A stretch of 64,000 nt of DNA from a virus: IMG/VR virus record IMGVR_UViG_3300018080_000171, one strand, 5' to 3'. The notes under the pieces were generated by a model, which worked only from the letters and a program-made list of their open reading frames with translations, did no database searches and was not told where the DNA came from. Positions 12,367-39,882 of the stretch are shown here, in pieces (within the stretch, counting starts at the first letter, position 1; every line of letters begins with the position of its first letter). The position numbers and the translations under genes are program-made.

Positions 12367-12376
12367 TTTTTATTAT

Positions 12377-12460: not shown

Positions 12461-12467
12461 TTTATGG

Positions 12468-13147: not shown

Positions 13148-13232
13148 GCTCAAGTGGCGAAATTGGCAGACGCGGCAGACTAAGAATCTGTTTCCCATTA
13201 AGGGAGTGGAGGTTCAAATCCTCTCTTGAGTA
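13148..13232 (+). tRNA. class-II tRNA-Leu-like (anticodon loop CTAAGAA, read as AAG)
   Basis: Acceptor GCTCAAG/CTTGAGT, D-arm GCG-AAATTGGCAGA-CGC, anticodon stem GCAGA/TCTGT, variable hairpin CCC-ATTA-AGGG, T-arm GGAGG-TTCAAAT-CCTCT. Confidence 0.4.
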
Positions 13233-13240
13233 TTTTTAAC

Positions 13241-13324
13241 GCTCTCTTGGCGAAATTGGCAGACGCATATGGTTTAAGCCCGTATATCCGTAAGGATGTC
13301 CCGGTTCGACTCCGGGAGGGAGTA
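13241..13324 (+). tRNA. tRNA-Leu(TAA), class II
   Basis: Acceptor GCTCTCT/AGGGAGT, the same D-arm as the previous tRNA, 6-bp anticodon stem ATATGG/CCGTAT with loop TTTAAGC, variable hairpin ATCC-GTAA-GGAT, T-arm CCCGG-TTCGACT-CCGGG. Confidence 0.55.
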
Positions 13325-13354
13325 TTAAGAATGGTAGGCTTTCTAAATAATTAA

Positions 13355-13837
13355 AGGAAGCCTACCTTTTATGTAGATTGGTCAGAATATTCCATTATAT
13401 CCTCTCTTAAGCCTCACCTTATTGCCAAGCGTGGTCACAAATGTGAGAAATGCGGTTTAGAGAAATGGTTAGAAAGCCCTATTCCTCTTGAGGTAGATCA
13501 TATATCAGGCGATAGGACAGACAACCAAGAGAGCAATTTAACGCTCTTATGCTGCAACTGTCACGCTCTGACACCGACTTGGAGAGGAAGAAAAAATAAG
13601 AAAGAGCCAATAAAATACCATTGTAGTAAATGCGAAAAAGAGATAACAAGTACTTCTAAAAGTGGATTATGTGTTAAATGTGTAAAAACAACTATTTCGG
13701 CTGATATGCATTATAGGAAAGTGAAGAATAGACCTTCTGTAGAGCAACTGAAGAAAGAAATAAAAGAAACAAGTTACGCAGCTTGTGGTAGAAAATATGG
13801 AGTTTCCGATAACTCTATTCGAAAATGGATAAAATAA
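13355..13837 (+). CDS. HNH homing endonuclease with no canonical start codon in frame (possible pseudogene or non-ATG start)
   Basis: Frame encodes ...KCEKCGLEKWLESPIPLEVDHISGDRTDNQESNLTLLCCNCHALT... plus a second CxxC pair. There is no ATG, GTG or TTG between the upstream stop (13352-54) and the motif. It ends 1 nt before a tRNA. Confidence 0.4.
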   Translation, partial: RKPTFYVDWSEYSIISSLKPHLIAKRGHKCEKCGLEKWLESPIPLEVDHISGDRTDNQESNLTLLCCNCHALTPTWRGRKNKKEPIKYHCSKCEKEITSTSKSGLCVKCVKTTISADMHYRKVKNRPSVEQLKKEIKETSYAACGRKYGVSDNSIRKWIK

Positions 13838-13912
13838 GCCGGGGTAGCCCAACTGGCAAGAGGCGTTAGTTTTAGAAACTAAAGGTTGGGGGTTCAACTC
13901 CCCCTCCCGGTA
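13838..13912 (+). tRNA. type-I tRNA with anticodon TAG (a Leu CUA-reading anticodon on a short-variable-loop scaffold)
   Basis: Acceptor GCCGGGG/TCCCGGT, anticodon stem TTAGT/ACTAA with loop TTTAGAA, 5-nt variable loop, T-arm GGGGG-TTCAACT-CCCCC. Confidence 0.45.
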
Positions 13913-13978
13913 TTTAACTATTCACCAGACACTTAAAAATCGAATTTTATAGGAGTGTTAATAATAATTTGTTCAAGG

Positions 13979-14566
13979 ATGGTTATGGATTTGTTTGTAA
14001 AAAATTTAGAAGAGATAAGACAGATAGCAACTAAGTTGCATTTTATACATGGTAAACGCTATGAGGTTAATGAGCTGATCAATGCATCTTATATTTTATT
14101 CAAAAGAGCTATTACTAATAATCCTACATTGTTAGAAAAACAGTTCTCTAAACTAACTACTCTCCTTTTCAGGGTTAAATCTGATATGAAATGTTACATT
14201 AGAGATGAGACTAATTTTCGGATACAAGAAAGATTGGTAGCAAAAGGTATAGAAGTACCTATGTTTCAGAATGCTTCTTTCCAAAAAGAATACGAAGAAG
14301 ATACTATTCCTTTTGAACCTTCTAACACTGAATCTGGTTTTGAGGAATTTGAAGTAAGTGATTTTCTAGATAAACTTTTTATGGAAGTTCATTTAGAAAA
14401 TGATGAGTGGGATATAATTCAAGGTTATTTCTATGATGAAAAGGAATTAAAACAAATCGGTCAAGAGATAGGCAAGGCTGAATGTACTATTTCTACTAAA
14501 AAGAAAAAGATGTTAACAAAGATGAGGCCAACTGCACTTAAGTTAAGAGAATCTATTTTAAAATAA
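13979..14566 (+). CDS. sigma-factor-like protein (region-4-like HTH at the C-terminus)
   Basis: The C-terminal ELKQIGQEIGKAECTISTKKKKMLTKMR resembles a sigma70 region 4.2 HTH. It is preceded by a CACCAGACAC motif (about 13922). The listed ORF starts at a GTG at 13955. Confidence 0.4.
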   Translation: MVMDLFVKNLEEIRQIATKLHFIHGKRYEVNELINASYILFKRAITNNPTLLEKQFSKLTTLLFRVKSDMKCYIRDETNFRIQERLVAKGIEVPMFQNASFQKEYEEDTIPFEPSNTESGFEEFEVSDFLDKLFMEVHLENDEWDIIQGYFYDEKELKQIGQEIGKAECTISTKKKKMLTKMRPTALKLRESILK

Positions 14567-14580
14567 TGTTAAAAAAGTTG

Positions 14581-14608
14581 TTGACTTATTCTGAAAAGAT
14601 GATATAAT
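14581..14608 (+). promoter_or_regulatory. sigma70 promoter TTGACT-N16-TATAAT
   Basis: Consensus hexamers upstream of the tRNA-Glu(CTC) cluster. Confidence 0.5.
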
Positions 14609-14685
14609 AGAAAACAGATTAGAGGGTAGACCCTTTATGAGTGGTTTGGTTCAGCCTTCCACGGTAAAAAAATGGCTGAGCTGAA

Positions 14686-14758
14686 GCTCTCGTCTTCTAG
14701 TCGGGTAGGATGCGACCCTCTCAAGGTTGCGACATGGGTTCAAATCCCATCGAGAGTA
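14686..14758 (+). tRNA. tRNA-Glu(CTC)
   Basis: Homologous to the 5284 copy. Anticodon stem CGACC/GGTTG with loop CTCTCAA, canonical T-arm ATGGG-TTCAAAT-CCCAT, acceptor GCTCTCG/CGAGAGT. Confidence 0.55.
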
Positions 14759-14764
14759 TTATAA

Positions 14765-14897
14765 GTATTGAGATAGTGCTTTTTGTTCTATTGCACCGTA
14801 TCCTTCGCAGAGGCTACGAGAATAAAAGGGGAAGTAGAGTCTTGAATGCAACAAGGCGAGGGTCACAGAATACTCCGTATCTTGATACTTATTTTAT
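14765..14897 (+). ncRNA. roughly 130-nt structured spacer between tRNAs (candidate small RNA)
   Basis: GC-richer than its flanks, with multiple short hairpins. There is no ORF; the listed 65-aa ORF overlaps the tRNAs. Confidence 0.2.
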
Positions 14898-14981
14898 GCA
14901 CGCATAGTCTAATTGGATAAGGCACTGGTCTTCTAAACCAGCGGGAGTAATCCTTTCCAGGTTCGAGTCCTGGTGCGTGTG
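14898..14981 (+). tRNA. class-II tRNA with anticodon TCT (an Arg anticodon on a long-variable-arm scaffold)
   Basis: Acceptor GCACGCA/TGCGTGT, perfect anticodon stem CTGGT/ACCAG with loop CTTCTAA, variable arm about 17 nt, T-arm CCAGG-TTCGAGT-CCTGG. Confidence 0.4.
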
Positions 14982-15240
14982 TTATGAATAATTATAGAGG
15001 CATAACATATTTTAAATTTCTAGACAACCGTTTTTTTCATTGGCTGTTTAAGAAATATTTCTGTAAAAAGAATATTCACCTATTCGATGAGTGCGAATCT
15101 ATTGAATGGCACTTTTTGTCTTGCGACGCTTGTGGCTTAGAGGTTCATATCAAAAAAATAATTGAAGAGAAGGATTCCGACATAGAAGATATGGAAATAA
15201 GGAATGATATAAAAGCTCCTGAAGCTTAAATGGATGAAGC

Positions 15241-15314
15241 ACCCTTATAGTATAACAGGATAGAACAATTGCCTCCTAAGCTTTATGTCCTGGTTCGAGT
15301 CCAGGTAAGGGTAA
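15241..15314 (+). tRNA. tRNA, anticodon unresolved (candidate loop CTCCTAA, read as CCT)
   Basis: Perfect acceptor ACCCTTA/TAAGGGT and T-arm CCTGG-TTCGAGT-CCAGG. The interior stems are mismatched. Confidence 0.4.
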
Positions 15315-15436
15315 TAAAAAATATTGGATAAAAAAGAAGTGATAGTAGCTTATGTCTGTAAAAGAAGTTTCGAATCGTTATTTTTTACACCAGATGAAAG
15401 AAAAAACTATAATATTATTGTTAAGAAAGTAAAAAA

Positions 15437-15646
15437 ATGAAACACGAAATCGAAGAAGCAACAAGAGCAATCTTAAGACAATCAATCACGGCTGCTCGAA
15501 GTAAATTTAACTTAAATCGCAAAGATGCTGAAAGTTATGTTCGCAGAAATCTTGGCACTTGCGATGTCCACGATGCTTTGATGGAAGCTATTGCGGATGA
15601 CATTGCCGAACAAAAAGAGTATGAAAAAGGCATGAAAGATATATAA
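15437..15646 (+). CDS. small hypothetical protein (69 aa)
   Basis: ATG ORF lying between tRNAs. Confidence 0.4.
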   Translation: MKHEIEEATRAILRQSITAARSKFNLNRKDAESYVRRNLGTCDVHDALMEAIADDIAEQKEYEKGMKDI

Positions 15647-15729
15647 GCCCGCGTAGCTCAGTCCGGATTAGAGCAGTACGCTACGAACGTAAAGGTCAGG
15701 AGTTCAAATCTCTTCGCGGGTATTTATTG
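15647..15729 (+). tRNA. tRNA-Arg(ACG)
   Basis: Acceptor GCCCGCG/CGCGGGT, D-arm GCTC-AGTCCGGATTA-GAGC, anticodon loop CTACGAA, T-arm AGGAG-TTCAAAT-CTCTT. Confidence 0.65.
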
Positions 15730-15737
15730 CCCGAGTA

Positions 15738-15813
15738 ACGCAAATTGGCATCGCTCTGATACTCAAAGCATCAGGTTTGTGAGTTCGACTCTCACCTCGG
15801 GTACTTATTTTAA
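15738..15813 (+). tRNA. type-I tRNA with candidate anticodon CAA (a Leu UUG-reading anticodon; loop CTCAAAG)
   Basis: Acceptor GCCCGAG/CTCGGGT, T-arm GTGAG-TTCGACT-CTCAC. The anticodon stem has an A:C closing pair. Confidence 0.4.
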
Positions 15814-20273: not shown

Positions 20274-21575
20274 ATGGGACCTAAAAGTATCACAGTAATA
20301 GTATTGGTCGTAATTGCTCTTGGAGCAGTTGTAGCAGGAATGAATGGTTATTTTGGTCAGAATGACGACCAGGACTGGCAAGTCCTCCAGAGTCCGTTCG
20401 GCACGATGTCGGTCCGAACCGATTCAGGTATTTATCAGAAGCAGTTTGCGAACGCTTGGACTTATCCGAAAGTTCAGCGAGTATACTTCTCTTCTGATGT
20501 TAGAGAAGGTTCTTCTCTTGATGAATCTTGTAAAGTAGTTTTCAGCGATAAGGGTACGGCATCTTTCTCGACTATGGTATTGTATCGTTCTCCTTATATG
20601 TTGAGCGGTTTAGCTATTCCTGATATTAATGACGAAGGGGATCAGCCTAAAGGTTTGAAAGAAGGAGCGGTAGCAAACTTCCATCGTCTTTGTAAGGGCG
20701 ATATTAAGATTGCCGATGCGACAGTTTTAGCAAGACTTAAAGAGTATGCACGTATTGTCGCTTCGGATTACAATGCTTCGCAGTCAGTTGATAGTCAGGA
20801 CGCTTTTATCGCTTCAATTCGTAAGTCTTTGAAAGAAGACAAGACTCTCGTATCTTATGGTATTGATGTTGAAGAAGTAACTCTCAGCGATATTTCCTTT
20901 GACGCTAAGACGATTGCTCAGTTTGAGAAACAGCAAGAAGCTATTTTGGCATCGAAAGAGGCTGAAGCTAGAAAAATTCAGTACGATATGCAGAAGCTTG
21001 AGACTGATGCCCAGTATGCTCAGAAGATTGCCGAGCAAAAGGGTATTGCCGAGATGGAAAAGATGAAACAAACCACGGATGCTGCAAGAGACGCAGAACT
21101 CGCGACTATCGAAGCTCAGAAGAATGTTGACGTTGCTACTCTAGCTAAGGTTCAAGCCGAGACAGAAGCGGCTATGAAAGAGTCAGTAGCTAAGATTGAA
21201 AAAGAAGCCGCTCTTATCGTTGCTAGTAAGTCTTTTGAAGTTGCTCAGATTGCGGCTAACGAAGCTGAAGAAGAGAAAAAAGCAATGATTTCTCTTGCTG
21301 AAGGTAAACAGAAGTCTATTGAGCTTTCAGGAGCTATTACCGAGCAAGAAGAAGTTTTGGCTAAGATTGCTGCTCAGAGAGACGTAAGTATCTCAGCAAA
21401 CTATGCTAAGATTGCTGTTCCTAGTACTATCTTTATGGGCGGCGGTAGTTCTGACGGTAAGGGTTCGGCTGATTACTTCGGTAATCTTATGAGTTATGCA
21501 CTTGCTCAGAACACTGGACTTCTTCCTAAAGAAAGTCCTAAGTTTGTACCTATCAAAGTATTACCTAGTAAGTAG
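20274..21575 (+). CDS. SPFH/band-7 (flotillin/prohibitin-like) membrane protein
   Basis: N-terminal TM segment followed by a beta-rich region, then a long Ala/Glu/Lys/Gln-rich coiled coil typical of SPFH proteins. Confidence 0.45.
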   Translation: MGPKSITVIVLVVIALGAVVAGMNGYFGQNDDQDWQVLQSPFGTMSVRTDSGIYQKQFANAWTYPKVQRVYFSSDVREGSSLDESCKVVFSDKGTASFSTMVLYRSPYMLSGLAIPDINDEGDQPKGLKEGAVANFHRLCKGDIKIADATVLARLKEYARIVASDYNASQSVDSQDAFIASIRKSLKEDKTLVSYGIDVEEVTLSDISFDAKTIAQFEKQQEAILASKEAEARKIQYDMQKLETDAQYAQKIAEQKGIAEMEKMKQTTDAARDAELATIEAQKNVDVATLAKVQAETEAAMKESVAKIEKEAALIVASKSFEVAQIAANEAEEEKKAMISLAEGKQKSIELSGAITEQEEVLAKIAAQRDVSISANYAKIAVPSTIFMGGGSSDGKGSADYFGNLMSYALAQNTGLLPKESPKFVPIKVLPSK

Positions 21576-21740: not shown

Positions 21741-22607
21741 ATGAAAAAACCATTAGGACTAATACTGTATAAGGGACCTTCTAATATTGATGGTAGGATG
21801 ATAGTAGTTATTGCTACCTTTAAATCGTCTAACGATAAGACTGGTAAGATGGTTCAAACTTGGATAATGTGTGCCGATGTTGACCCTATTCTAGCTATTA
21901 AAGAAGGTAGGGATTATTCTGTATGCGGCAATTGTAAACACAAACATATTGGGTCTTGTTATGTCAATATAGCATTCGGTCCTGATAATGCTTTTAAAGC
22001 CTATATTAAAGACAAATATACTCATTATAACAGTAGTCATGATTCTATGTTTAAAGGTCGAGAATTAAGATTAGGGGCTTATGGTGACCCAGCGGCAGTA
22101 CCTATCGAAGTGTGGGATAAGTTTACTGCTCTTTCCGATGGTCATACAGGATATACTCACCAGTGGAACACTCGCAAGGTACACCCACGGCTTAAAGATT
22201 ATTGTATGGCAAGTTGCGATAATGAAGCTGAATACCAAAAAGCTAAAAAGTTGGGTTGGAGGTCTTTTAGGATTAGATTAAATAAAGACCAGCCATTACT
22301 TGAAAATGAGTTTGTCTGCCCTGCTAGTAATGAAGCTGGCAGAAAAACAAGTTGTAATAAATGTAGGGCTTGTATGGGGCTTGAAGCAAAAACCCAAAAA
22401 GACCCTTGTATTATTATTCATGGTCTCCCGCATAAGCTTGAAAAGTTTAAATGGGGTATGGAGCGTATCGCATGGAAAGAAGCCTATCGTAAGGTATTTA
22501 ATTATCCACCACCAAAAAAGAAAAAAAATCGGAGGAAAAAGGTGGTATCAAAAGTAAAAAGGAAAGTATCACCAGACACCAAAAAATCGGAACTTATAGT
22601 AGTATGA
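21741..22607 (+). CDS. hypothetical Cys-rich protein with a Lys-rich C-terminus (288 aa)
   Basis: Start MKKPLG follows an AAGGAATTG RBS. The listed 21669 start lies inside the promoter motif. The C-terminus is encoded by the next motif copy. Confidence 0.5.
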   Translation: MKKPLGLILYKGPSNIDGRMIVVIATFKSSNDKTGKMVQTWIMCADVDPILAIKEGRDYSVCGNCKHKHIGSCYVNIAFGPDNAFKAYIKDKYTHYNSSHDSMFKGRELRLGAYGDPAAVPIEVWDKFTALSDGHTGYTHQWNTRKVHPRLKDYCMASCDNEAEYQKAKKLGWRSFRIRLNKDQPLLENEFVCPASNEAGRKTSCNKCRACMGLEAKTQKDPCIIIHGLPHKLEKFKWGMERIAWKEAYRKVFNYPPPKKKKNRRKKVVSKVKRKVSPDTKKSELIVV

Positions 22608-22828
22608 AAAAGAAAACAAGTATAATACTAAAAGACGAATTTGATAATCCTAATATATGGAAGCATATAGCCATATCATTAGGATAATCACCAGACACTT
22701 AAAAATCTAAGTTTATAGAGTTGAAGGGTAAACTTGTCACTTACCGCAAAATTAGAATAAGGTGGACAATCAAAAAAACAAACCTCTAACTATAGACTTA
22801 GGTTTTTAATTTAAAAGGGAATTTAATC

Positions 22829-24136
22829 ATGTCAGAAATAGTAGAACACAAAAAATTCATATGCGTAAACTTTAAAGCGTCAAACAATAATAAGGTTTGG
22901 CAATATACTATATATAAAGATGGTTCGGCTTTAACCGAGTGGGGTAGAGTAGGTCAAAACCTACAAAGCAAAATGACCACTGAATCAGCTGCGTTATCTA
23001 AAATGCGTAAAAAGACTAATCCGAATAATGCTTCTGATAAACTCTATACAGAAGTTAAAGTGGCAGAAGGTACAGAAGGCTCATCGAGTTCTGGCAGAGT
23101 AGTTAATTCTTCAAGTTTGAAGTCTATTGCTCAAAAGCAAATTGATATTAAAGACCCAACATTAAAAGAATTAGTTGACTTTCTCGTTAAAGAAAATGTC
23201 CACGATATTGTACAAGCTTCGTCAGGTTCTATTCAATATGACACTTCATCGGCTCAATTCAAGACTCCACTAGGGGTTATACTGCCCGAAATGGTATCTG
23301 ATGCTAGAGATTTACTAGATGATATGGCTGATTATGTAGTCAACCAAAAATTTGATAGTGTCGTATTGGCAAGGAAATTAAACGAATACTTACGGTTAAT
23401 ACCTCACGCGGTGGGAATGAAAAAGATTACACCAGAACTTATCTTACCGAATGCCACAGCATTACAGACAGAGAATAACTTGTTAGATGGCTTAACAGCT
23501 TCTTTCAATAATATACATTCGGGGGCTATCGCTAAATCGTGTAAAAAAGATATAGTACAACCTAGACTATTCGATGTTACGCTTGATGTGGTAAGAGATA
23601 GGGCTTTAATTAAAAGAATCGAATCTTATTACGAGAGTACTAAAAAAACGATGCACCAAAGTTTTCGTTATAAGTTGCATAAAGTATATGAGATAGAGAT
23701 AGGTTCCGTTAAGAAGAATTTTGCTAATATCGGCAAAAGTGTGGGAAATATACAGGAGTTATTTCACGGAACTAAATGCTCTAATCTTCTTGCTATTCTT
23801 AAAAAAGGGCTTATAATTCCTCCATCACGATCAGGACATGTTACTGGTCGTTTATATGGCGATGGGGTTTATGCGTCAGATATTAGTTCAAAAGCGTTAA
23901 ATTATGCGACTAATTTTTGGGGTTCGGGTGGTTCTACAAGTAGGATTTTTATGCTTTTATGTGATTTTGCTATGGGGAATATTTATTATCCTGATGGCAA
24001 ATATGGAGTTAGATATCCTGTTAAGGGTTATGACTCTACTTTTGCAAAGGCTGGACGTGGAGGAGTGTACAATAACGAAATGATAGTATACAAAACTGGA
24101 CAAGTTAATTTGAAATATTTATTAGAGTTTAAATAA
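22829..24136 (+). CDS. poly(ADP-ribose) polymerase-like ADP-ribosyltransferase (WGR domain plus PARP catalytic domain)
   Basis: WGR signature WQYTIYKDGSALTEWGRVGQ. Catalytic H-Y-E triad in ELFHGTK, GDGVYASD and YNNEMIVY. Confidence 0.75.
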   Translation: MSEIVEHKKFICVNFKASNNNKVWQYTIYKDGSALTEWGRVGQNLQSKMTTESAALSKMRKKTNPNNASDKLYTEVKVAEGTEGSSSSGRVVNSSSLKSIAQKQIDIKDPTLKELVDFLVKENVHDIVQASSGSIQYDTSSAQFKTPLGVILPEMVSDARDLLDDMADYVVNQKFDSVVLARKLNEYLRLIPHAVGMKKITPELILPNATALQTENNLLDGLTASFNNIHSGAIAKSCKKDIVQPRLFDVTLDVVRDRALIKRIESYYESTKKTMHQSFRYKLHKVYEIEIGSVKKNFANIGKSVGNIQELFHGTKCSNLLAILKKGLIIPPSRSGHVTGRLYGDGVYASDISSKALNYATNFWGSGGSTSRIFMLLCDFAMGNIYYPDGKYGVRYPVKGYDSTFAKAGRGGVYNNEMIVYKTGQVNLKYLLEFK

Positions 24137-24201
24137 AGGATATTTTATGAGTTTTCTATAAAGTATATACCATAACCTATTTTTAGATATGGAGTGTACT
24201 T

Positions 24202-25017
24202 ATGAATAATAAATCTTACAAATATCCTTTATTGAATGATAAAGAATGGCTTTTTAAAAAATACATAGAAGATGAATTAAGCACTGTTGAAATGTGCAAA
24301 ATGGCAGGTGCCAAAACTGCTAACTCTGTTAGGCAAGCTCTAATAAGACATTCTATACCAGTTAGGACTATTGGCGATGGGTTACGAGTTAATAAAGAAG
24401 ATGGCTTTATCGCCGACAAAGAAGTTATTGACGGTTGTCTATTAGGGGATGGATTTCTTTGTAAGTGGAACAAAGAGAGTGAAAAATCGTTTCCTTATTT
24501 CGCGAAAAGAAATAAATATTATGACCATATAAAATATGTTGCTGAAATACTTTTTAAGGATAAATGGCAAGAAAGAGTCAAAGAGAACAATGAAAAGTTT
24601 TTAGATAAAAAATGTGTAGTATTTTCTCTAAGAAGTTTATCTAATAAGTCTTTAAAAACATTTTACGAGAGATGGTATCCTGAATGGAATAACTATAAAA
24701 AAATTATCCCTCAAGATATAGAGATAACTCCTAATCTGCTTTTACATTGGTTTCTAGATGATGGTAGTTCTTATCTAAGAAAACGAAATAGCAAAACTAA
24801 ACAGGTGGTTATCACTTTTTGTAGCGAATGTTTCTCGAAAGATGACCAAGAAATGATTATGGATAAAGTTAATAGCCAATTCGATTTGTCTATGAGGCTG
24901 AATAAAACTAATTCTGGGGTAGGGTATAGAATAGTAGTCCCACAATCGAAAGCTGATAATTTCTATAATATAGTTGGAGATTGTCCAGTCCCCTCTATGG
25001 AGTATAAATGGAAATAG
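24202..25017 (+). CDS. LAGLIDADG-family homing endonuclease (two motifs)
   Basis: Motif 1 IDGCLLGDGFL and motif 2 LLHWFLDDGSSYL. Free-standing, directly downstream of the PARP gene. Confidence 0.5.
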   Translation: MNNKSYKYPLLNDKEWLFKKYIEDELSTVEMCKMAGAKTANSVRQALIRHSIPVRTIGDGLRVNKEDGFIADKEVIDGCLLGDGFLCKWNKESEKSFPYFAKRNKYYDHIKYVAEILFKDKWQERVKENNEKFLDKKCVVFSLRSLSNKSLKTFYERWYPEWNNYKKIIPQDIEITPNLLLHWFLDDGSSYLRKRNSKTKQVVITFCSECFSKDDQEMIMDKVNSQFDLSMRLNKTNSGVGYRIVVPQSKADNFYNIVGDCPVPSMEYKWK

Positions 25018-25085
25018 GTTCACCAGACACTAAAAAATCTAATCTTATAGTAATGTTAAGAGTTAGTAATTAAAGGAAAATAAAA

Positions 25086-25622
25086 ATGGGACAGTATTAT
25101 AAAACAATAAATATAGACAATATGGAATGGCTGAATGCTCATGCTTATGATAACGGAGTCAAGCTAACAGAACATTCTTGGGTAGGAAATAACTTTGTAG
25201 GGGCTGTTATGGCTCTGCTACAGCCCGGTATGCCTTGGCATAAATCTCGTATTGTATGGGCTGGAGACTATTACGATGAAGTCGATTGTGGAGAAATCCC
25301 ATATTATGATATGGTACAAAAACAAGACGAACAAAAAAACGTACTTCCAATTACTAAAGATATGCAGAAGTTGGCTATCTTAGTAAACCATACTAGGAAA
25401 GAGTACGTTGATTATCGGAAATTGACTGGTAAAGATGGTTGGATAGTGAATCCTCTTGGTATCTTGACTGCTCTTGGTAATGACCGAGGGGGTGGGGATT
25501 ACAGAAGCGATCAACCAGATTTTGAAAAGGTCGGGATATGGGCTGGAGATAGTCTATCTGTTGAGACCGAAATCCCTTATGGTTTTTGGGAATTGAAAGT
25601 TAATTTTCAAGAGAATTGGTAA
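25086..25622 (+). CDS. hypothetical protein (178 aa)
   Basis: ATG ORF with an upstream promoter motif. Confidence 0.5.
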   Translation: MGQYYKTINIDNMEWLNAHAYDNGVKLTEHSWVGNNFVGAVMALLQPGMPWHKSRIVWAGDYYDEVDCGEIPYYDMVQKQDEQKNVLPITKDMQKLAILVNHTRKEYVDYRKLTGKDGWIVNPLGILTALGNDRGGGDYRSDQPDFEKVGIWAGDSLSVETEIPYGFWELKVNFQENW

Positions 25623-25692
25623 ATCACCAGACACTCAAAAATTGTAACTTATAGTAATGTAAGAAGTACTAAACTAAAACAAATTTTATTTC

Positions 25693-26364
25693 ATGGAGAT
25701 TCCTAAAATGGATTCTAACGATCAAAACACAAAAGTTTCACCAGTAGTAGTCGTAACTGACTGCCTAAATGATAAGGTTATCGACATTATCGCAAAAATG
25801 ACTGGTCGAGATTCAGTCTTTACATCTTTTGATGTTACAAAACTGATTCGTATTGAGAACCCGACAATGAACGTACCTCACAATGATGTCCGAGATATGG
25901 TTTTTGAAGCGTATCAGAATACCTTCTGCGACGATTATGAGAGAACCTTGACAGAATTGTCGGTTGGGTATTCATATGTCTATCACCCTGATACCGTCTC
26001 AGCTTCTACCCACCCGTTGGCAGTACAGCCAGTTGCTGACGATACTAACACCGACCCGGCTGTTATCAATGATACCGACCTGACGACTGAAAAGCGTCTT
26101 AATATTTCCAAGACTCATTTGGATGCTATGGGTCTGAAATCTGGAGATATGGTTAGACTTGACACCGAGAATGGTGTATTATCTATCACCGCCTGCACCA
26201 GTTCTCCATACGAGACGTTGTTTGTCAATTCCGATGGTCGGCTTCGTTTGAATGCTCGAACGCTCACAAGGGCATTCTCGAAGCTTCACGATAAGTTCGA
26301 GATTCTACTGTCTTCTGATAAGACTGCTATTACTGTCCGTCCTATCGAAGTAATAGCAGATTAA
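25693..26364 (+). CDS. hypothetical protein (223 aa)
   Basis: ATG ORF. A GC-rich hairpin follows at 26380-26430. Confidence 0.5.
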   Translation: MEIPKMDSNDQNTKVSPVVVVTDCLNDKVIDIIAKMTGRDSVFTSFDVTKLIRIENPTMNVPHNDVRDMVFEAYQNTFCDDYERTLTELSVGYSYVYHPDTVSASTHPLAVQPVADDTNTDPAVINDTDLTTEKRLNISKTHLDAMGLKSGDMVRLDTENGVLSITACTSSPYETLFVNSDGRLRLNARTLTRAFSKLHDKFEILLSSDKTAITVRPIEVIAD

Positions 26365-26436
26365 TTTTGTCTTCTGTTCGCTACTACCTGCGAACCTCCA
26401 TAAAGGAAGGGTTCTCCTACGCCCTTCCTTTTTTTT

Positions 26437-27009
26437 ATGAATAGAAAGTATTTTATAATGAAGAACATGAAACTACAAATATATCAATATATATTTGATT
26501 TAAAGATTAACAATGAAAACAAAGTTATTTCCTCCGCTTTTACTGTCGAAGGTAAACGTTCTGCTTCTATGGATGACACCGAGTTTAGGCAAGGGGAAAC
26601 ATATCAGCAAGAAATTTTTAGGGGAAAATGGGATTGGTTAATAGATAAAGAAACAGATATTATTTTACCTATACATGATATAGTGGTTTCTGTTGTAGAT
26701 CCTAAATATTATGGGGCTTATCGCTTTGGAGGAGGTTCTATAGGTAGTTCTATGAAGATAGTCTGCGAGCATTGTGGAAGTTCTGATTGCGATTTTGATT
26801 GTATAGATGCTCTTAAATGGGTAGATATTTGTGATGTGATGGATCGTGAAGAGAAAAAAGATGAGTTAAATGGTAATAGAGAGTTTAATAAACAATGTGA
26901 CGCTCTTGAGGCTATGATATTGGGTCACGCTGTAGCTGGTCTTCATGTCGATGAAGAAATGTATATAGAAGGCATTGTATCTGCATTAGATGCAATGGGT
27001 AATCAGTAA
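26437..27009 (+). CDS. hypothetical protein (190 aa)
   Basis: ATG ORF. Confidence 0.45.
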   Translation: MNRKYFIMKNMKLQIYQYIFDLKINNENKVISSAFTVEGKRSASMDDTEFRQGETYQQEIFRGKWDWLIDKETDIILPIHDIVVSVVDPKYYGAYRFGGGSIGSSMKIVCEHCGSSDCDFDCIDALKWVDICDVMDREEKKDELNGNREFNKQCDALEAMILGHAVAGLHVDEEMYIEGIVSALDAMGNQ

Positions 27010-27077
27010 CTCACCAGACACTTAAAAATCCTACTTTATAGAAGTGTTAATTATAACACTGTTTAGGGAATTGTATT

Positions 27078-27410
27078 ATGAAATTTATTGTAACTGGTAT
27101 TGCCAATATCGAGATAACTGCTGAAATAGAAGCAGATAGTAAAGAAGAAGCAAAGAGTGAATTTGATTCGGCTGATTTCTGTCCTGAATCGACTGCTGAT
27201 ATAACCATAACATCCGCTAATCAATGTGGCTCAGATGTTGAAGATGTAGTATGGCTTGCTGCTGATAAATGGGAGGAGTTATCTCCATTAGAGAGAGCCA
27301 TTATCCTCAAAGAGAACGGCGTTTCGGACGAAAATGCTTTGAATATTTGCCAAAGAGACTATCTAATTGAAATAGATGAAGAATGGTGGGAATACTTTGA
27401 CGGAGACTAA
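27078..27410 (+). CDS. small acidic protein (110 aa)
   Basis: Promoter motif plus an RBS. Asp/Glu-rich. Confidence 0.45.
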   Translation: MKFIVTGIANIEITAEIEADSKEEAKSEFDSADFCPESTADITITSANQCGSDVEDVVWLAADKWEELSPLERAIILKENGVSDENALNICQRDYLIEIDEEWWEYFDGD

Positions 27411-27477
27411 TCACCAGACACTTAAAAATCTAATTTTATAGAAGTGTAAATTATAACACTAAATAAAGGAAAAAACG

Positions 27478-27660
27478 ATGCCTAAAAAAGAATATAGAAA
27501 ATGCGAGAATCATTGTCCTAAATGTAACAGCGAGAATATATCTAGTATTGGTACGTGTTTCGCTGATGTCGTTTATCAAAAACTTGTTTGTAAAGATTGC
27601 GGTTGTGGGTTTAAAGAGTATTATAAATATTCAGATACAGAAATAGATGGAGAGGAATAA
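27478..27660 (+). CDS. zinc-ribbon protein (60 aa)
   Basis: CPKC...CKDC pairs. Confidence 0.45.
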   Translation: MPKKEYRKCENHCPKCNSENISSIGTCFADVVYQKLVCKDCGCGFKEYYKYSDTEIDGEE

Positions 27661-28126
27661 AATGGGAAATAGAATGTATGTAGATACGTTTCAGAGAATA
27701 AATACTCGTACAAATATTAGTGATTATATGATTGAAATCGCTGACGATCACGACTATACAACTCTTATTTTCGCGGGAGATAAATCTCTTAGCAGTAATA
27801 AAAACGAGATATTACCTGGCGATAATATGGAGCTATTAAGGCTCCTTATTAAAGAGAAGCATAATGAAGAACACGGCTCAAGTTGCGAAGCATTGGAGAA
27901 TATCCTCGAAAGAGCAAGAGCCAATTTCCGAGGCGTTTGGATAGGAGGTTATAACTTTGATGGGCAGTTCCTCAAAAAAGTCCTCGACCATGATATTAGA
28001 GAGGTTTATTTCTGTCCCGATTGCGGTTGGGAAAGTTTCTCTGATGTAGATTATGAAGCTGATTGTGGCAATCCTCAATGTGATGGGGAAATGTCTGAAG
28101 TAAGAGAAGAATGGTATGAAGTTTAA
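27647..28126 (+). CDS. hypothetical protein with a C-terminal zinc ribbon (159 aa)
   Basis: CPDC...C..C. Overlaps the previous stop. Confidence 0.45.
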   Translation: MERNKMGNRMYVDTFQRINTRTNISDYMIEIADDHDYTTLIFAGDKSLSSNKNEILPGDNMELLRLLIKEKHNEEHGSSCEALENILERARANFRGVWIGGYNFDGQFLKKVLDHDIREVYFCPDCGWESFSDVDYEADCGNPQCDGEMSEVREEWYEV

Positions 28127-28137
28127 AGGGAGCGATA

Positions 28138-28356
28138 ATGTTTTATTTTATTGAACAGACAATCAGAGAAGGCGATAGAGAATATACTACTAGGTGGACA
28201 GAAGAAGCCAATTCGGTGGAAGACCTTGAAGAAACCTACAATGTCGAGCATGACGAGTTCGGTGCCAATGTAGATGATTTTGAGATATGCACTGAAGATA
28301 TTAGTGTCCGGAAAATGACACAACATGAATTTGATGTCGTAAGTCGTTTTCTGTAA
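28138..28356 (+). CDS. small acidic protein (72 aa)
   Basis: ATG ORF. Confidence 0.4.
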   Translation: MFYFIEQTIREGDREYTTRWTEEANSVEDLEETYNVEHDEFGANVDDFEICTEDISVRKMTQHEFDVVSRFL

Positions 28357-28419
28357 TCACCAGACACTAAAAAATCTAATCTTATAGAAGTGTTAATAAT
28401 AATTTATTGGAGTAATGAT

Positions 28420-29064
28420 ATGAGCGTTTCAATAGGCAAAAACATGGATACAGGTATAGTTTCTCTCCGTTTTGACAGTACTGGTAGAGCGGTCGAATTG
28501 ATGCCAGAAGAAGGTATCAATCTCGATAATAAAATGCGTATGGTAAGAGCCGAGGGTAGATTGATTAAAGACCATATCGGTAAAGAAGCTCTTGTGTTCT
28601 TACAAGAACTTGGTAAAGCCATCTGCGATGGAGACCCGAATACTATTGCGGACATGTGGGTCGGTAATGGCAGTAAGATTGTCGAGAAAGCGATCAAAGA
28701 AGGGATGCTATATCAAGAATGTATCCCTAATCCGTTTAAACTCTACTACCTTGGTACACAGCCTTGTAGCGATAATTATAATGAGAAAATGGTGCAAAAG
28801 GCTATTGATTGTACTACAGAGATAAGAGCTATTCTTAATACTCTATTCCAGAGAATCATTCATGCCGAAGATATGTTCACAATAGACAAGGAAATCGAAG
28901 GTTATGGCAAACTGATTTGTGCTTATAAGGGGGGAGGGCTTGGCGTTGGAGACACGGCAACCGATGAAGCTATTCAGCAATATCTCATTGATAAGTTAGA
29001 AACTATTTTCGATGAAGAAGATGTTGAAATAATTGGCAATTGTTTTTATGATTCGATCCACTGA
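28420..29064 (+). CDS. hypothetical protein (214 aa)
   Basis: A GGAG RBS precedes the 28420 ATG. The listed 28390 start is unlikely. Confidence 0.45.
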   Translation: MSVSIGKNMDTGIVSLRFDSTGRAVELMPEEGINLDNKMRMVRAEGRLIKDHIGKEALVFLQELGKAICDGDPNTIADMWVGNGSKIVEKAIKEGMLYQECIPNPFKLYYLGTQPCSDNYNEKMVQKAIDCTTEIRAILNTLFQRIIHAEDMFTIDKEIEGYGKLICAYKGGGLGVGDTATDEAIQQYLIDKLETIFDEEDVEIIGNCFYDSIH

Positions 29065-29367
29065 TAACTAGACAACTAAAAATTAAGGCTTATAATATTA
29101 TGCTAGTAGCAAAGTTAATCACATTTAGTATTACGACTAGGGTTCTAGTTGACGGAAACAGTACCGAAGAAGAGCAATTTGACGAAGCTGTTAAACTTGC
29201 TAGACCTAAAATAGTGGACAATGCAAAGGATATTCTTTAAGGTGATAATGTCGTAGGATTTGATGACGATGAAGAGTGTCCGTATGATCCAGAAATTGAT
29301 TAACCACCAGACACTTAAAAATCTAAAATTATAGGGGTGTTAATAATAACACCGAGTAGGAGTTTTA

Positions 29368-29562
29368 ATGTATATATTAAAATTTCATAAATCAGATAAA
29401 GTCGAAGATATGAAAATCGGCACAAAAGAAGCACTAGCAGATTGGGTTATGTTGAACACCGATGGGCTTATTCACACTAAAGAAGTCGATGGTAAAGTTT
29501 ATGTTAAACGGTATAGTAAAGAAATAGCTATTATATCAGAAATAGAGGTTATAAATGATTAA
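29368..29562 (+). CDS. small protein (64 aa)
   Basis: ATG ORF with an AGGAG RBS. Confidence 0.4.
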   Translation: MYILKFHKSDKVEDMKIGTKEALADWVMLNTDGLIHTKEVDGKVYVKRYSKEIAIISEIEVIND

Positions 29563-30145
29563 GGGTACACTAATAGAAGTTATTGGCGATGTTACTGATC
29601 CTCAAGTATCAAGCGAAAACGAAGTGGCTATAATTCCTCACTGCTGTAATAACCTAAAAGGTTGGGGGGCAGGTTTTGTGTTAGCTCTTAACAAAAAAGA
29701 TAGAAACCCAATGGATTGTTATCGAAAGATGTTTGAAAAATACACTATACCAAAAGATAAAAAAGATATGTTAGGGTTAGTATCTTATGCCTCTTTTTGC
29801 TCTGCTGTCGGTTTTCAAGAGTTCGATGGTTCCAGATTATATGAGAGCAAAGATGCTATTTTTCCATCAACAATGATAGTTGCTAATATGATAGCACAAG
29901 ATGGAGTTAGAGGTAATTCGGATTTTGATACACCTTTAAGATATGTCTCCCTAATTAAATGTATGCTTAGGGTTGCTTTGTGGATAAAGGTAGAACAATC
30001 TAAATATCCAAACAAATTATTTACTATCCACGCTCCTAAATTTGGAAGCGAACTCGCTGGAGGTAATTTCGATTTCATTCTTGAGCTAATCAGAGAGATT
30101 TGGTTAGAAAACGGTATTAACGTTGTCGTCTATGAGTTCGGTTAA
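29555..30145 (+). CDS. macrodomain-like protein (ADP-ribose binding/hydrolase candidate)
   Basis: VIGDVTD...VAIIPHCCNN...GWGAGFVLAL parallels the macrodomain motifs GDIT...AIVNAAN...GGGGV..AI. Later FTIHAPKFGSELAGGNF resembles the macrodomain FP.ISTGVYG segment. Confidence 0.45.
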   Translation: MIKGTLIEVIGDVTDPQVSSENEVAIIPHCCNNLKGWGAGFVLALNKKDRNPMDCYRKMFEKYTIPKDKKDMLGLVSYASFCSAVGFQEFDGSRLYESKDAIFPSTMIVANMIAQDGVRGNSDFDTPLRYVSLIKCMLRVALWIKVEQSKYPNKLFTIHAPKFGSELAGGNFDFILELIREIWLENGINVVVYEFG

Positions 30146-30206
30146 TCACCAGACACTTAAAAATCTAGTATTATAGAAGTGTTAATAATATTTGATGGAG
30201 TTGCTA

Positions 30207-30971
30207 ATGAAAGACGAAGACGACATTTACATTGAGGAAAAAGCAAAGCAAGTAGCAGAATTGCTAAAAGATGCTGAAGGTAAATCTCATATACATACAG
30301 GTCAAATATTAGTGAAAGCTCTTGCCTCTATTAAAGAGGGGGATGGCATGGTAAACTATCATTTGGAGGATATGGACAGACATGCCAGAAACGTAGCCTT
30401 CGAGTCAAGAATGCACTTCTTTGATAAATTATGGAATTTTCTGCATGAAAACGGACATAACAGAGACAATCCAAATATATCAGAGCACGATTCCGCTTGG
30501 TGTCATTCTTTTTATAAGGGGGCTAAAAAAACATATAGCGATGATGACGGAAAAAGAAAAGTTATTGTTATAAGCAATATGATGGGTGGTGCTTCTCACT
30601 TCTTCGTTAAAAATGAACATATCATAGGAGATGAAGATTGGTCAATTTATTATATCGTAAGGATATGGGATGACCCTGAACGATTCTTTAGAGAAGACAG
30701 CCAAAGAAAATCTTTAAAAACTCTTGTAAAGAATGGTAAACTAACACTCTTTAACGACAATTATGCCGATGGAAACCGTAAAAAGTCTTGGCAAGACTAC
30801 GAAGAAGAGGGTTATTCACCTAGAATGTATGAGCATGATTATGAAAGATGTATTTTGAAGTATGATTGCCATCGTCCCGATTCTGTATTACGGAATTACT
30901 TCACACTTGGCAGGCATTGCGAAAATGCTTTAATGCAATTGGAGTCAGCATTTTGGATGAGAACTAAATAA
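30207..30971 (+). CDS. hypothetical His-rich protein (254 aa)
   Basis: A GGAG RBS precedes the 30207 ATG. Confidence 0.45.
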   Translation: MKDEDDIYIEEKAKQVAELLKDAEGKSHIHTGQILVKALASIKEGDGMVNYHLEDMDRHARNVAFESRMHFFDKLWNFLHENGHNRDNPNISEHDSAWCHSFYKGAKKTYSDDDGKRKVIVISNMMGGASHFFVKNEHIIGDEDWSIYYIVRIWDDPERFFREDSQRKSLKTLVKNGKLTLFNDNYADGNRKKSWQDYEEEGYSPRMYEHDYERCILKYDCHRPDSVLRNYFTLGRHCENALMQLESAFWMRTK

Positions 30972-31042
30972 TCACCAGACACCTAAAAATCCAAACTTAT
31001 AGCAATGTAAGGAAATAATAACACTGTTTAAGGAATTGTTAG

Positions 31043-33880: not shown

Positions 33881-34684
33881 ATGGAAGGTTTACTTTTAGA
33901 CACACCTGGTAGCGGCATAGTAACAATGGAACAAGCTTTTAGCATTCCTACCCCAGAAGCGACTAATACTTATAGTCCAGTTGGGAATAAAGACCTTTGG
34001 GATATGCTCTCTCGTATCGCCGATGAGCGAGGTCTTGAACTAGGGACACCCCATATTGGCTTAGCTAATAAGGGACAAAGAATGTTCGGTTCAGTCGAAA
34101 TCGTTAATCAGAACCAGCTCGATGACGAAGTTAGAATGATGCTCGGTTTTCGTAACAGTCTCGACAAAACTATGTCGATCGGTATCTGTTTCGGGAGTAA
34201 GGTTTTTGTTTGCTCGAATATGTGTTTTTCGGGCTATGCTTCAGACGGTAATGATGCAACTGGTATCGTTCACCAGCGTCACCAGTCTGACGTTTTCGGA
34301 AACCTCGAAATGGGTTTGAATGAGTCAATGGATAAGTTTGAGGTTTTCAAGAACTATCAAGAGAAGCTCTACAATCGCTTGAAAGAAATCAGTCTTTCAG
34401 ACGAACAGGCTTACCACTTGATTATTCAAGCGGCAAGAGCCGAGGCAATCAATAATACTGATTGTATGACAATCGCTAATGAATGGGATTTTCAGGTTAC
34501 CGGTCCGACCAATGAGGCTGAAGAAGAGCGTTGGCATCCAGAATTCACTCCAAGAACTGCATGGAGTCTGTTCAATGCCTTTACAGAGCAAGCTAAGACT
34601 TACCAGCAGAAAAACCCCCTTAAGGCTAACTTAAGATCGATAAAAATGAATTCGTTGTTCCACCAGCAGTATATGACGAATTAA
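33881..34684 (+). CDS. DUF932-like phage/plasmid protein candidate
   Basis: Central SIGICFGSKVFVCSNMCF resembles the conserved DUF932/TIGR03299 block. 267 aa. Confidence 0.35.
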   Translation: MEGLLLDTPGSGIVTMEQAFSIPTPEATNTYSPVGNKDLWDMLSRIADERGLELGTPHIGLANKGQRMFGSVEIVNQNQLDDEVRMMLGFRNSLDKTMSIGICFGSKVFVCSNMCFSGYASDGNDATGIVHQRHQSDVFGNLEMGLNESMDKFEVFKNYQEKLYNRLKEISLSDEQAYHLIIQAARAEAINNTDCMTIANEWDFQVTGPTNEAEEERWHPEFTPRTAWSLFNAFTEQAKTYQQKNPLKANLRSIKMNSLFHQQYMTN

Positions 34685-39260: not shown

Positions 39261-39423
39261 AAGTTAATAGAGCAGATATAATCGAATATTTAGCAGACGA
39301 TGGATGTTGGGAAACAGCTATCTGTACTGAGACTGGGACTGAATCTTTTGGTTTCCTATGTTTGGATGGTCAAATGAGGATTCTTTTTTATGACGATAAG
39401 GATATTAAATGGAGACTTCCAGA

Positions 39424-39882
39424 ATGAAAAAACATTTTTATATACTTCGCGGCTTGCCGGGCAGTGGAAAATCAACAAAAGCTAAAAACTTAGCCGGAGA
39501 ATTAGGTCAAGTCTTTTCAGCAGATGACTATTTCTGTATAAATGAAGAGGGAGAATATAGGTTTGATGGTGACCAGCTCGGGCTAGCTCATCAATGGAAT
39601 CAAAGACGATCGCTCGAAGCTATAAAAGCGAATATCCCTATCGTTGTTATCGACAATACAAATACAACTCTTCGAGAGATAAAATCATATATCCCACATA
39701 TTAAACTCGCTCAAAAGATGGGATACGAGGTTAGTATCCAAGAGCCAGATACAGAGTGGGCTATGGATGTTGAAGAGCTGTTCAAAAGAGGTACCCACAA
39801 TGTGCCCGAAGAACATTTAAAAAAGATGTTAAATAGATACGTTAAGGGCGTTACGGTAGAAGACATACTTGTTTCTAAATAA
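39424..39882 (+). CDS. P-loop kinase (polynucleotide-kinase/AAA_33-like)
   Basis: Walker A GLPGSGKST, then D..F and VVIDNTN blocks typical of PNK-like kinases. Confidence 0.55.
   Translation: MKKHFYILRGLPGSGKSTKAKNLAGELGQVFSADDYFCINEEGEYRFDGDQLGLAHQWNQRRSLEAIKANIPIVVIDNTNTTLREIKSYIPHIKLAQKMGYEVSIQEPDTEWAMDVEELFKRGTHNVPEEHLKKMLNRYVKGVTVEDILVSK

Follow-up and report, generated by a model that had tools for sequence, protein, structure and literature searches.

Only two bacterial PARPs have been shown to be active in vitro (PMC8120803). HaPARP of Herpetosiphon aurantiacus and CdPARP of Clostridioides difficile CD160 auto-PARylate in a DNA-dependent manner (PMC5966428, PMC8120803), and both are reversed by the PARGs of their own organisms (PMC8120803). 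The PARP and macrodomain families are both already known in phages, and phage PARPs have been annotated and surveyed (PMC4245714, PMC7824862, PMC9503650). In the literature we found no phage PARP that had been studied biochemically.

On the hydrolase side, SCO6735 strips thymidine-linked ADP-ribose from DNA and also removes protein-linked ADP-ribose (PMC9411070). AdfM (PhiKZ gp104) is an orphan DarG2-like phage macrodomain that clears DarT2 ADP-ribose from DNA (PMC13309987). DarT-DarG and other ART-macrodomain toxin-antitoxin pairs resemble the locus studied here in that a transferase and a macrodomain hydrolase lie in one genome region. In our locus, however, the two genes are non-adjacent and are predicted not to share a transcript, a PARP stands in the place of a DarT, and the pairing is not conserved across families.

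The window analysed here is a stretch of 64,000 nucleotides from IMG/VR record IMGVR_UViG_3300018080_000171, and is part of the genome of an uncultured large or jumbo phage. Its genes lie on one strand throughout, with 32 tRNA genes, and the contigs carrying its relatives are 298–548 kb long. No match at the DNA level was found among the deposited phages. A PWM scan of the whole window located 64 copies of a 44-nt motif on the + strand and 0 on the − strand, and this motif is probably a promoter.

The PARP gene (22829..24136, + strand) follows two copies of the motif (22565..22727, +) with CAGACA hexamers at 22573 and 22692 and PWM scores of 45.5 and 36.8. Its product of 435 aa is a compact PARP1-3-type enzyme, made of a WGR domain (about aa 1–80), a helical regulatory domain (about aa 110–225) and an ART domain (about aa 250–435). 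In Pfam, the PARP catalytic domain (PF00644) matches with E=2.8e-25 and PARP_reg (PF02877) with 28.6 bits at aa 111–223, the cut-off being 26.8. Its PDB sequence matches include PARP1, PARP2 and PARP4. The PARP1 catalytic domain is matched with E=1.7e-23, the alignment to the PARP1 catalytic fragment beginning at aa 119, and PARP2 is aligned from WGR to catalytic domain over aa 19–360 with E=6e-14.

An earlier note, made from the letters alone, had read this gene as a PARP with WGR and catalytic domains, and had proposed Pfam searches and structure prediction as checks. This gene and the endonuclease and macrodomain genes below were found exactly at 22829–24136, 24202–25017 and 29555–30145, all on the + strand, and the motifs that the note quoted are all present. 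Pfam bore out the PARP catalytic domain but not the other two families, as WGR scored below the threshold (18 vs 22 bits) and Macro (PF01661) had no match on the macrodomain ORF. The N-terminal region as a single sequence had no match in the PDB, but the family profile of the N-terminal 82 aa, run against the whole PDB, matched nothing but the PARP3 and PARP2 WGR domains (3.9e-4 and 8e-3), and 12 of the listed homologues have a WGR match (PF05406). The AF2 model, in which the helices of the regulatory domain are visible, can be aligned along its whole length with the PARP1 WGR-HD-ART chains 4dqy_C and 4opx_C and with PARP2 (Foldseek E ~1e-24), so the note's reading of the gene stands.

The quoted motifs are TEWGRVGQ at aa 36–43, HGT at 313–315, GVYAS at 346–350 and NEMIVY at 416–421. 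The catalytic residues H313, Y348 and E417 align with H862, Y896 and E988 of PARP1 and are invariant in 22 homologues. K355 and Y359 are present as well, the Lys and Tyr at the PARP1 K903 and Y907 positions are kept, and the NAD+-binding residues are intact. The H-Y-E triad does not by itself tell poly- from mono-transferases, as PARP3 and PARP4 have it and are mono-transferases. From its sequence, the phage PARP may thus make polymer or mono-ADP-ribose, since H-Y-E fits either.

HaPARP, CdPARP and human PARP2 and PARP3 share with the window PARP the WGR-helical-ART order, about equal size (47–52 kDa), the H-Y-E triad and the Lys/Tyr at the K903/Y907 positions. The window PARP differs from them in its compact WGR domain of about 80 aa, which falls below the Pfam threshold, in being phage-encoded and in its conserved neighbour, p223. 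It also differs from HaPARP and CdPARP in having no PARG nearby. PARG was sought by its GGG-X6-8-QEE signature or its catalytic domain; the signature occurs neither in the window, translated in six frames, nor in any of the PARP and macrodomain loci, and Pfam gave no PARG match on any scanned ORF.

PARPs had been called rare in phages, and this holds for the deposited phage genomes, with PARP in 21 of 50,697 records, but not for the metagenomes, with 632 homologues. The annotated phage PARPs compared here are those of Xanthomonas XacN1 and Xoo-sp13, Klebsiella FBKp34, KP13-16 and 05F01, Stenotrophomonas RAS14 and CM1, and Cellulophaga phi4:1 and phi17:2. They are full-length homologues of the window PARP with 31–36% identity, but they branch elsewhere in the PARP tree and have no p223.

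Downstream of the PARP gene lies a free-standing LAGLIDADG homing endonuclease of 271 aa with an N-terminal HTH-like region (24202..25017, +; phrog_11023). Pfam LAGLIDADG_2 (PF03161) matches it over its full length (1–168 of 168, E=1.3e-20), and its LAGLIDADG motifs are LLGDGF and FLDDGS. The cassette has a shared leader that begins immediately after the PARP stop codon, and occupies the same site in the window and in the relatives L005 and L045, but is absent from L003, L004 and L006. In L005 and L045 the endonuclease is more conserved than the neighbouring genes. It is a mobile cassette inserted just 3′ of the PARP stop codon, as the earlier note had supposed when it placed a homing endonuclease directly after the PARP gene and took the locus to be mobile; the mobility is borne out for the endonuclease. 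As the PWM scan assigned it no separate promoter motif, it is probably co-transcribed with the PARP gene.

The next gene, p178 (25086..25622, +), has a promoter-like motif of its own at 25024, and its function is not assigned, phrog_3156 being its only match. Among the relatives only L004 has a homologue. p178 is a lineage-specific gene between PARP and the usual neighbour of PARP.

That neighbour is p223 (25708..26364, +), of 218 aa from the ATG at 25708, the longest ORF starting at 25693. It is predicted to begin with a winged helix and to end with an MraZ-like double AbrB/SpoVT domain, the two being joined by a disordered linker. Immediately 3′ of it, a terminator scan found a hairpin with an 11-bp stem and then a T run (26402..26431, +), probably an intrinsic terminator. 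The earlier note overlooked p223, the gene truly co-conserved with PARP.

In the neighbourhood comparison, p223 is the top neighbour cluster and the commonest neighbour of PARP. It adjoins PARP in 21 of the 39 phage loci and 10 of the 23 bacterial loci, often across an intergenic gap of 0–60 nt, and is missing next to the other 18 phage and 13 bacterial PARPs. For the bacterial PARPs it is the sole conserved neighbour. In a neighbour-joining tree, the PARPs that have p223 group into a single clade, and the pair is also found in the 595-kb phage LR756511. We found no description of the PARP-p223 pairing in the literature, and it is the unreported lead at this locus.

The macrodomain protein of 196 aa (29555..30145, +; phrog_335) is assigned by sequence to the ALC1/TARG1 class and its Bt_1257/SCO6735 subtype, and its identification as a macrodomain by the earlier note is sound. 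As a single sequence it matches Bt_1257 (4.6e-19) and SCO6735 (2.3e-13) in the PDB. The family profile matches them over the full length (1.6e-39 and 6e-34), then the ALC1 macrodomain (2.4e-12) and, marginally, TARG1 (E=0.009). Its motifs are GDVT at aa 11–14, CCNN..GWGAGF at 30–41 and PKFGSELAGG at 161–170. Its start codon is overlapped by 8 nt by a small ORF from the ORF list, p64 (29368..29562, +), which is not conserved in the relatives and has a tblastn match in the same phage only. The p64-macrodomain gene pair is preceded by its own copy of the promoter-like motif (29300..29343, +; PWM score of 36.1 at 29308).

Q115 is invariant in the family alignment of 26 homologues and aligns with Q105 of chain 5e3b, that is SCO6735 Gln85 after a 20-residue tag. 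Gln85 is needed for the SCO6735 activity (PMC9411070). The protein shares with SCO6735 and Bt_1257 the full-length profile match, this Gln and the long loop after it. It differs in being phage-encoded and in an insertion of about 40 aa at aa 63–105, specific to its closest relatives, and its mildly acidic pI of 5.8 and acidic post-Gln loop are set against the basic SCO6735 (pI 9.5). A TARG1-type hydrolase with the Lys84/Asp125 dyad was rejected, as Gln occupies the Lys position and PKFGSELAGG the position of the TARG1 Asp loop.

It resembles AdfM in being a phage macrodomain that stands alone, without an adjoining transferase, and both belong to the broad ALC1/DarG/TARG1 class (PMC13309987). 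In this comparison by class and key residue, AdfM keeps the DarG-type catalytic Lys (K78), whereas the window protein has Gln there as SCO6735 does. By analogy with what SCO6735 (PMC9411070) and AdfM (PMC13309987) do, it may remove DarT2-made ADP-ribose from DNA thymidine.

The best explanation overall, for which we rate the chances as about even, is that a DNA-sensing PARP acts with p223, and that the macrodomain protein is a general hydrolase rather than a dedicated operon partner. By analogy with the three-domain PARP2/3, HaPARP and CdPARP, the phage PARP would be held off by its helical domain, and the binding of its WGR domain to DNA breaks or ends in the course of infection would switch it on. 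Once active, the PARP would draw on host NAD+ and ADP-ribosylate both itself and proteins associated with DNA, and p223 would be its partner, regulating or targeting it or serving as its substrate. In this phage, the endonuclease cassette and a further ORF would have come between the two ancestrally adjacent genes. Most likely, the macrodomain protein would be a general and active mono-ADP-ribosyl hydrolase such as many large phages carry alone. Its main task would probably be the removal of hostile ADP-ribose such as DarT-type marks on phage DNA, and it could also clear protein-proximal ADP-ribose left by PARP.

The earlier note had instead proposed a candidate writer/eraser pair. In its dedicated form, PARP would mark host or phage targets and the macrodomain would reverse exactly those marks or recycle the auto-modified PARP. 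We consider such a dedicated pair rather doubtful. The two genes stay in synteny across the window clade (L003–L006 and L045) while PARP diverges to 40–72% identity, proximity being retained down to the 40% of L045, but many unrelated neighbouring genes are syntenic there too. Within the window the gap is 5.4 kb, instead of the six that had been given, and holds ten ORFs, several promoter-like sites and the strong terminator-like hairpin at 26402. An operonic ART-hydrolase pair of the DarTG kind was rejected on this gap, the intervening ORFs, the hairpin, the separate promoter-like motifs and the low co-occurrence.

Counting a macrodomain within 10 kb of PARP as proximity, 7 of the 37 phage PARP loci have one, namely one jumbo-phage clade and two separate cases, and 30 do not. 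Conversely, 76 of the 80 phage loci with a window-type macrodomain lack PARP within 10 kb and four have it, and none of the 23 bacterial PARP loci has such a macrodomain. Proximity nevertheless recurs in about four separate lineages, namely the window clade, L028, where PARP, a p223-like gene, two small ORFs and the macrodomain gene lie inside 3.4 kb, L035, and the Klebsiella FBKp34/KP13-16/05F01 group. Since the rough chance expectation is about 0.4–1.2 lineages, some functional link is plausible. In the Klebsiella group, however, the macrodomain is common to hundreds of PARP-less relatives. Across the phage records, 1325 have the related FBKp34-type macrodomain and 21 have a PARP.

The chemistry also permits a pair, as SCO6735-type enzymes and TARG1 remove the Glu-linked ADP-ribose that PARPs make (PMC9411070). 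The match lists of the two proteins have contigs in common, and the macrodomain protein is the only candidate eraser because no PARG signature was found nearby. Against this, 56% of jumbo phages have a macrodomain anyway (PMC9503650), so that chance would be expected to bring it and PARP together in a genome. Its characterised relatives SCO6735 and AdfM strip DarT-type ADP-ribose from DNA, which makes an independent counter-defence role no less likely than a pair. On balance, the writer/eraser reading of the note is supported only in part.

Less probable still is that PARP and p223 form a toxin/antitoxin-like or abortive-infection-type module, in which a DNA-end-sensing PARP would burn NAD+ or poison targets and p223 would restrain or regulate it, for host shut-off or the exclusion of rival phages. 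The two-gene cassette has variable flanks and occurs in unrelated phages as well as on bacterial chromosomes, domains of the AbrB/MazE type are a common mark of antitoxins, and JGI names one p223 homologue MazE antitoxin. The charges would suit it too, since in this phage PARP is basic and p223 acidic, but the charge of p223 is not conserved across its family. The pI of 4.8 of p223 is unusual for a protein that binds DNA and counts against the main explanation. Moreover, PADLOC matches neither protein, and an SRAP DNA-damage gene comes after the pair in one bacterium, pointing to repair rather than conflict.

That the PARP would modify DNA itself, ADP-ribosylating terminal phosphates at breaks or genome ends as PARP2/3 do so as to mark or protect phage DNA or block host DNA, with the macrodomain reversing it, is highly unlikely. 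For it speak the WGR-HD-ART architecture shared with PARP2/3, the DNA-binding-type folds of the conserved partner p223 and the work of ALC1-class macrodomains on DNA-linked ADP-ribose (PMC9411070, PMC8385414). This is an argument by analogy, however; the sequence fits DNA and protein acceptors alike, and the tested bacterial three-domain PARPs auto-modify protein (PMC5966428).

More broadly, we tentatively suggest that PARP and p223 may be a self-contained and horizontally mobile two-gene system, common to bacteria (Armatimonadota, Blastocatellia and others) and uncultured large phages and distinct from the known PARP-PARG arrangement. In it, p223 would be dedicated to a DNA-sensing PARP, as its regulator, antitoxin or targeting factor, and the ALC1-class macrodomain would be an optional eraser recruited in some phage lineages.

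As one further example of PARP plus macrodomain, the locus adds little. It shows that their proximity is recurrent but not obligatory, and cautions that the co-occurrence of a transferase and a hydrolase in a jumbo phage is not always a pair. In phages and bacteria alike, one large clade of PARPs is accompanied by a specific DNA-binding-type partner gene, and this provides a testable handle on PARP regulation outside eukaryotes.

The three ORFs named in the earlier note are real and lie on the plus strand, namely the PARP (22829-24136, 435 aa), the homing endonuclease (24202-25017, 271 aa) and the macrodomain protein (29555-30145, 196 aa), and their translations contain the quoted motifs. In the PARP, Pfam finds the catalytic domain (E=2.8e-25) and the regulatory domain (28.6 bits, over the cut-off). 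Among PDB sequences it matches catalytic fragments of PARP1 best (E=1.7e-23, the alignment starting at aa 119), and the PARP2 alignment covers aa 19-360, from the WGR into the catalytic domain. The phage H313, Y348 and E417 align with PARP1 H862, Y896 and E988, and K355 and Y359 with K903 and Y907. All five residues are invariant across 22 homologues of 50-72% identity.

The WGR domain was examined separately because its Pfam call is marginal, slightly under the cut-off (18 versus 22 bits). As a single sequence, the N-terminal 110 aa had no WGR match in the PDB. The family profile of the first 82 residues, searched against the whole PDB, matched WGR domains only (PARP3 2eoc, 3.9e-4; PARP2, 8e-3). 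The AlphaFold2 model (pLDDT 71) aligns over ~495 columns with the DNA-bound PARP1 WGR-HD-ART chains 4dqy_C and 4opx_C, and also with PARP2. These domain and model matches give it the architecture of PARP2/3 and of the bacterial enzymes HaPARP and CdPARP.

Of the Pfam assignments suggested in the earlier note, then, the PARP catalytic domain is recovered, the WGR stays below the cut-off and the Macro model has no match in ORF 29555-30145. With that model silent, the macrodomain identity rests on PDB sequence matches, which bear it out. The single sequence matches Bt_1257 (4.6e-19) and SCO6735 (2.3e-13), and the ALC1/CHD1L macrodomain more weakly. A profile of 26 homologues matches the same three over its full length at 1.6e-39, 6e-34 and 2.4e-12, respectively, and TARG1 marginally.

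Q115 is invariant in the macrodomain family within the motif ANMI(A/G)QDG and aligns with SCO6735 Gln85, whose mutation inactivates that enzyme (PMC9411070). The Lys/Asp dyad of TARG1 is missing from the phage protein and from SCO6735 too (PMC9411070). SCO6735 removes protein-linked ADP-ribose and also the thymidine-linked ADP-ribose made by DarT on DNA (PMC9411070). The phage protein differs in being mildly acidic rather than basic, and carries a ~40 aa extra segment (aa 63-105) common only to its closest relatives.

PARPs of the same architecture have been annotated in other phages, FBKp34 and XacN1 among them, and surveys discuss them (PMC4245714, PMC7824862, PMC9503650). Macrodomains too are common in phages, with one subgroup already characterised, so the finding of a PARP and a macrodomain belongs to known kinds. 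The unreported element is the module of the PARP with p223, the product of ORF 25693/25708-26364. Our incomplete literature search found no description of this pairing, which is absence of evidence only.

We sampled 36 IMG/VR PARP loci plus one NCBI contig and clustered all neighbours within 10 kb, so the counts cover ±10 kb around each PARP gene. The macrodomain family lies within 10 kb of the PARP in 7 of the 37 loci. Five of these form one syntenic clade (the window and L003-L006), in which many unrelated neighbours are likewise conserved, and the others are L028 and L035. In L028, a contig from an unrelated phage, 3.4 kb of one strand (10001-13427) compactly holds the PARP, a p223-like gene whose C-terminus differs, two small ORFs and a macrodomain gene of divergent sequence. 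In the Klebsiella phages FBKp34, KP13-16 and 05F01, a related macrodomain gene lies 2.4-5 kb upstream of the PARP.

The earlier note read the two genes as a candidate writer/eraser pair; a dedicated pair of this kind is a rival reading, and the proximity recurs in about four lineages. By a rough estimate, inferred rather than computed, ~0.4-1.2 of some 12-15 independent lineages would by chance have a macrodomain gene within 10 kb of the PARP, so the proximity is probably not pure coincidence. Macrodomains are frequent in themselves, a published survey giving them a share of 56% among jumbo phages and 40% among medium-sized phages (PMC9503650). Against the pair, 30 of the 37 PARP loci lack the partner within 10 kb, as do 76 of the best 80 IMG/VR macrodomain loci, the remaining 4 all being from the clade of the window. 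Among deposited phage records, the FBKp34-type macrodomain is found in 1325 and PARP in 21, and the macrodomain neighbour is missing from all 23 bacterial PARP loci. Clearly, the two genes are separable.

The largest neighbour cluster is p223 and not the macrodomain, with members in 16/37 loci by BLAST clustering and 21/39 by iterated HMM. The p223 gene usually starts 0-60 nt past the PARP stop codon; in the window, the endonuclease cassette and p178 (phrog_3156, 25086-25622) have come to lie between the two. Its homologues also lie 3′ of the PARP in 10 of the 23 bacterial loci, from Armatimonadota, Blastocatellia, Omnitrophota and others, and are the only conserved neighbour there, although ORF calling is crude in the high-GC ones. 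These chromosomal and MAG pairs (L124, L127, L130, L132, L133, L137-L140 and L145) sit in flanks that are otherwise unrelated. The L138 pair, on a 5.7-Mb Blastocatellia contig, has a gene for an SRAP (SOS-response-associated peptidase) behind it, at 11845-12522.

That these bacterial neighbours are homologous to p223 is confirmed by hhalign with probabilities of 97.7% and 95.2%. In a simple neighbour-joining distance tree, the p223-linked PARPs form one clade of mixed phages and bacteria, and the XacN1-like, T4-like and FBKp34-like PARPs, which have no p223, fall outside it. Compared by hhalign, the genes 3′ of the PARP in XacN1, L035 and L030 gave no sign of kinship with p223. Searches found no p223 in XacN1, FBKp34, RAS14, 05F01 and LR756500, nor in cultured phages by tblastn. 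At 184625-186856, the 595-kb uncultured phage LR756511.1 has a PARP catalytic-domain match together with a weak p223-like match, which lies ~1.6 kb further downstream and in the same orientation.

Among 1.84 billion representatives, a profile search picked up 1130 p223 relatives, nearly all of 190-250 aa; a related-locus search with the close p223 alignment returned one, already known, contig. A p223 profile had no significant match among PDB sequences. In the window phage, p223 is strongly acidic (pI 4.8, net -12) and the PARP basic (pI 9.3, net +15). A DNA mimic or inhibitor is possible but a weak idea, because acidity is inconsistent across the family (17/31 neighbours, 73% of 139 representatives). 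The linkage could also be read as a toxin/antitoxin-like or abortive-infection-type module; PADLOC gave no match for the PARP, p223, the macrodomain protein, p178 or the upstream ORF.

A promoter-like motif of 44 nt, T.ACCAGACAC..AAAAAT..A.TCTTATAGTA.TGTAAG, occurs 64 times on the plus strand of the window and never on the minus strand. The copies span 1123-53867 (e.g. 20102, 22573, 25024, 25628, 29308 and 30150), are densest at 32459-53867 and precede nearly every gene (~60). They lie upstream of the PARP (two copies), p178, p223 and the pair of the macrodomain gene with p64, a small ORF (29368-29562) overlapping its start codon; none was found upstream of the endonuclease. L003 and L006 carry related but different versions. 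Since the same motif fronts ~60 genes, it says nothing specific about the PARP and the macrodomain, and the shared promoter class was rejected as evidence of their co-regulation. A strong terminator-like hairpin lies 3′ of p223, and the two genes are predicted not to share one transcript.

The endonuclease matches LAGLIDADG_2 end to end in Pfam. In L005/L042 and L045, its homologues occupy the same place directly 3′ of the PARP gene and are more conserved than the neighbours (68% and 50% identity versus 52% and 40% for the PARP), and L003, L004 and L006 have none. A leader, AAAGGAT[AT]TTT..., is common to all three cassettes and begins right after the PARP stop codon (window 24137-24201; L005 ~11333-11397; L045 ~6627-6700). 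The endonuclease is thus shown to be mobile by its presence and absence among relatives and the shared leader. The pattern is the expected look of a free-standing homing endonuclease and suggests that its putative homing target is the PARP gene's conserved 3′ end.

The window is AT-rich (GC ~35%) with positive GC skew throughout and nearly all ORFs on the plus strand. At the DNA level, no deposited phage was matched by 22000-31000 in a megablast search, and L001 is another assembly of the same phage. Relatives reside on IMG/VR contigs of 298-548 kb, which places the source among uncultured large or jumbo phages. The 32 tRNA genes, for most amino acids, form an array at 5184-15804 that embeds an HNH endonuclease ORF (8425-8979) and a sigma-70 region-4 ORF (13955-14566); two of the tRNA calls exceed the usual length (Val-cac, 90 nt, 5789-5878; Asn, 93 nt, 6056-6148).

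Upstream of the PARP are an SPFH/Band-7-like protein whose long tail is coiled-coil-like (20274-21575) and a Cys-rich protein (phrog_2554, 21741-22607, 288 aa counted from the ATG after the promoter-like motif), their synteny kept in the close clade L003-L007. Most window ORFs are unknown, and the few other recognisable genes encode DUF932 (33881-34684), phage lysozyme (36143-36742), AAA_33 kinase-like (39409-39882) and FeoA-domain (55869-56291) proteins. Pfam found no other NAD+/ADP-ribose gene (Nudix, NadV, ARH, sirtuin) in ~50 window ORFs, and no PARG signature appears in the window or any locus examined.

The domain identities, conserved catalytic residues, endonuclease mobility and co-occurrence patterns are established, and the reading we tentatively favour is of a PARP working with p223. 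By analogy with PARP2/3, HaPARP and CdPARP, the phage PARP would be autoinhibited and activated by DNA breaks. HaPARP and CdPARP display DNA-dependent auto-PARylation in vitro (PMC5966428, PMC8120803). That the phage PARP ADP-ribosylates DNA ends is a rival, less likely reading. The macrodomain protein would be an active mono-ADP-ribosyl hydrolase with a main role independent of the PARP, and may also trim PARP products. Its best precedents are SCO6735 and AdfM, a phage anti-DarT2 macrodomain (PMC13309987). Once active, the PARP would consume host NAD+ and modify itself and DNA-associated proteins, with p223 as its putative co-worker, be it regulator, targeting factor or substrate.
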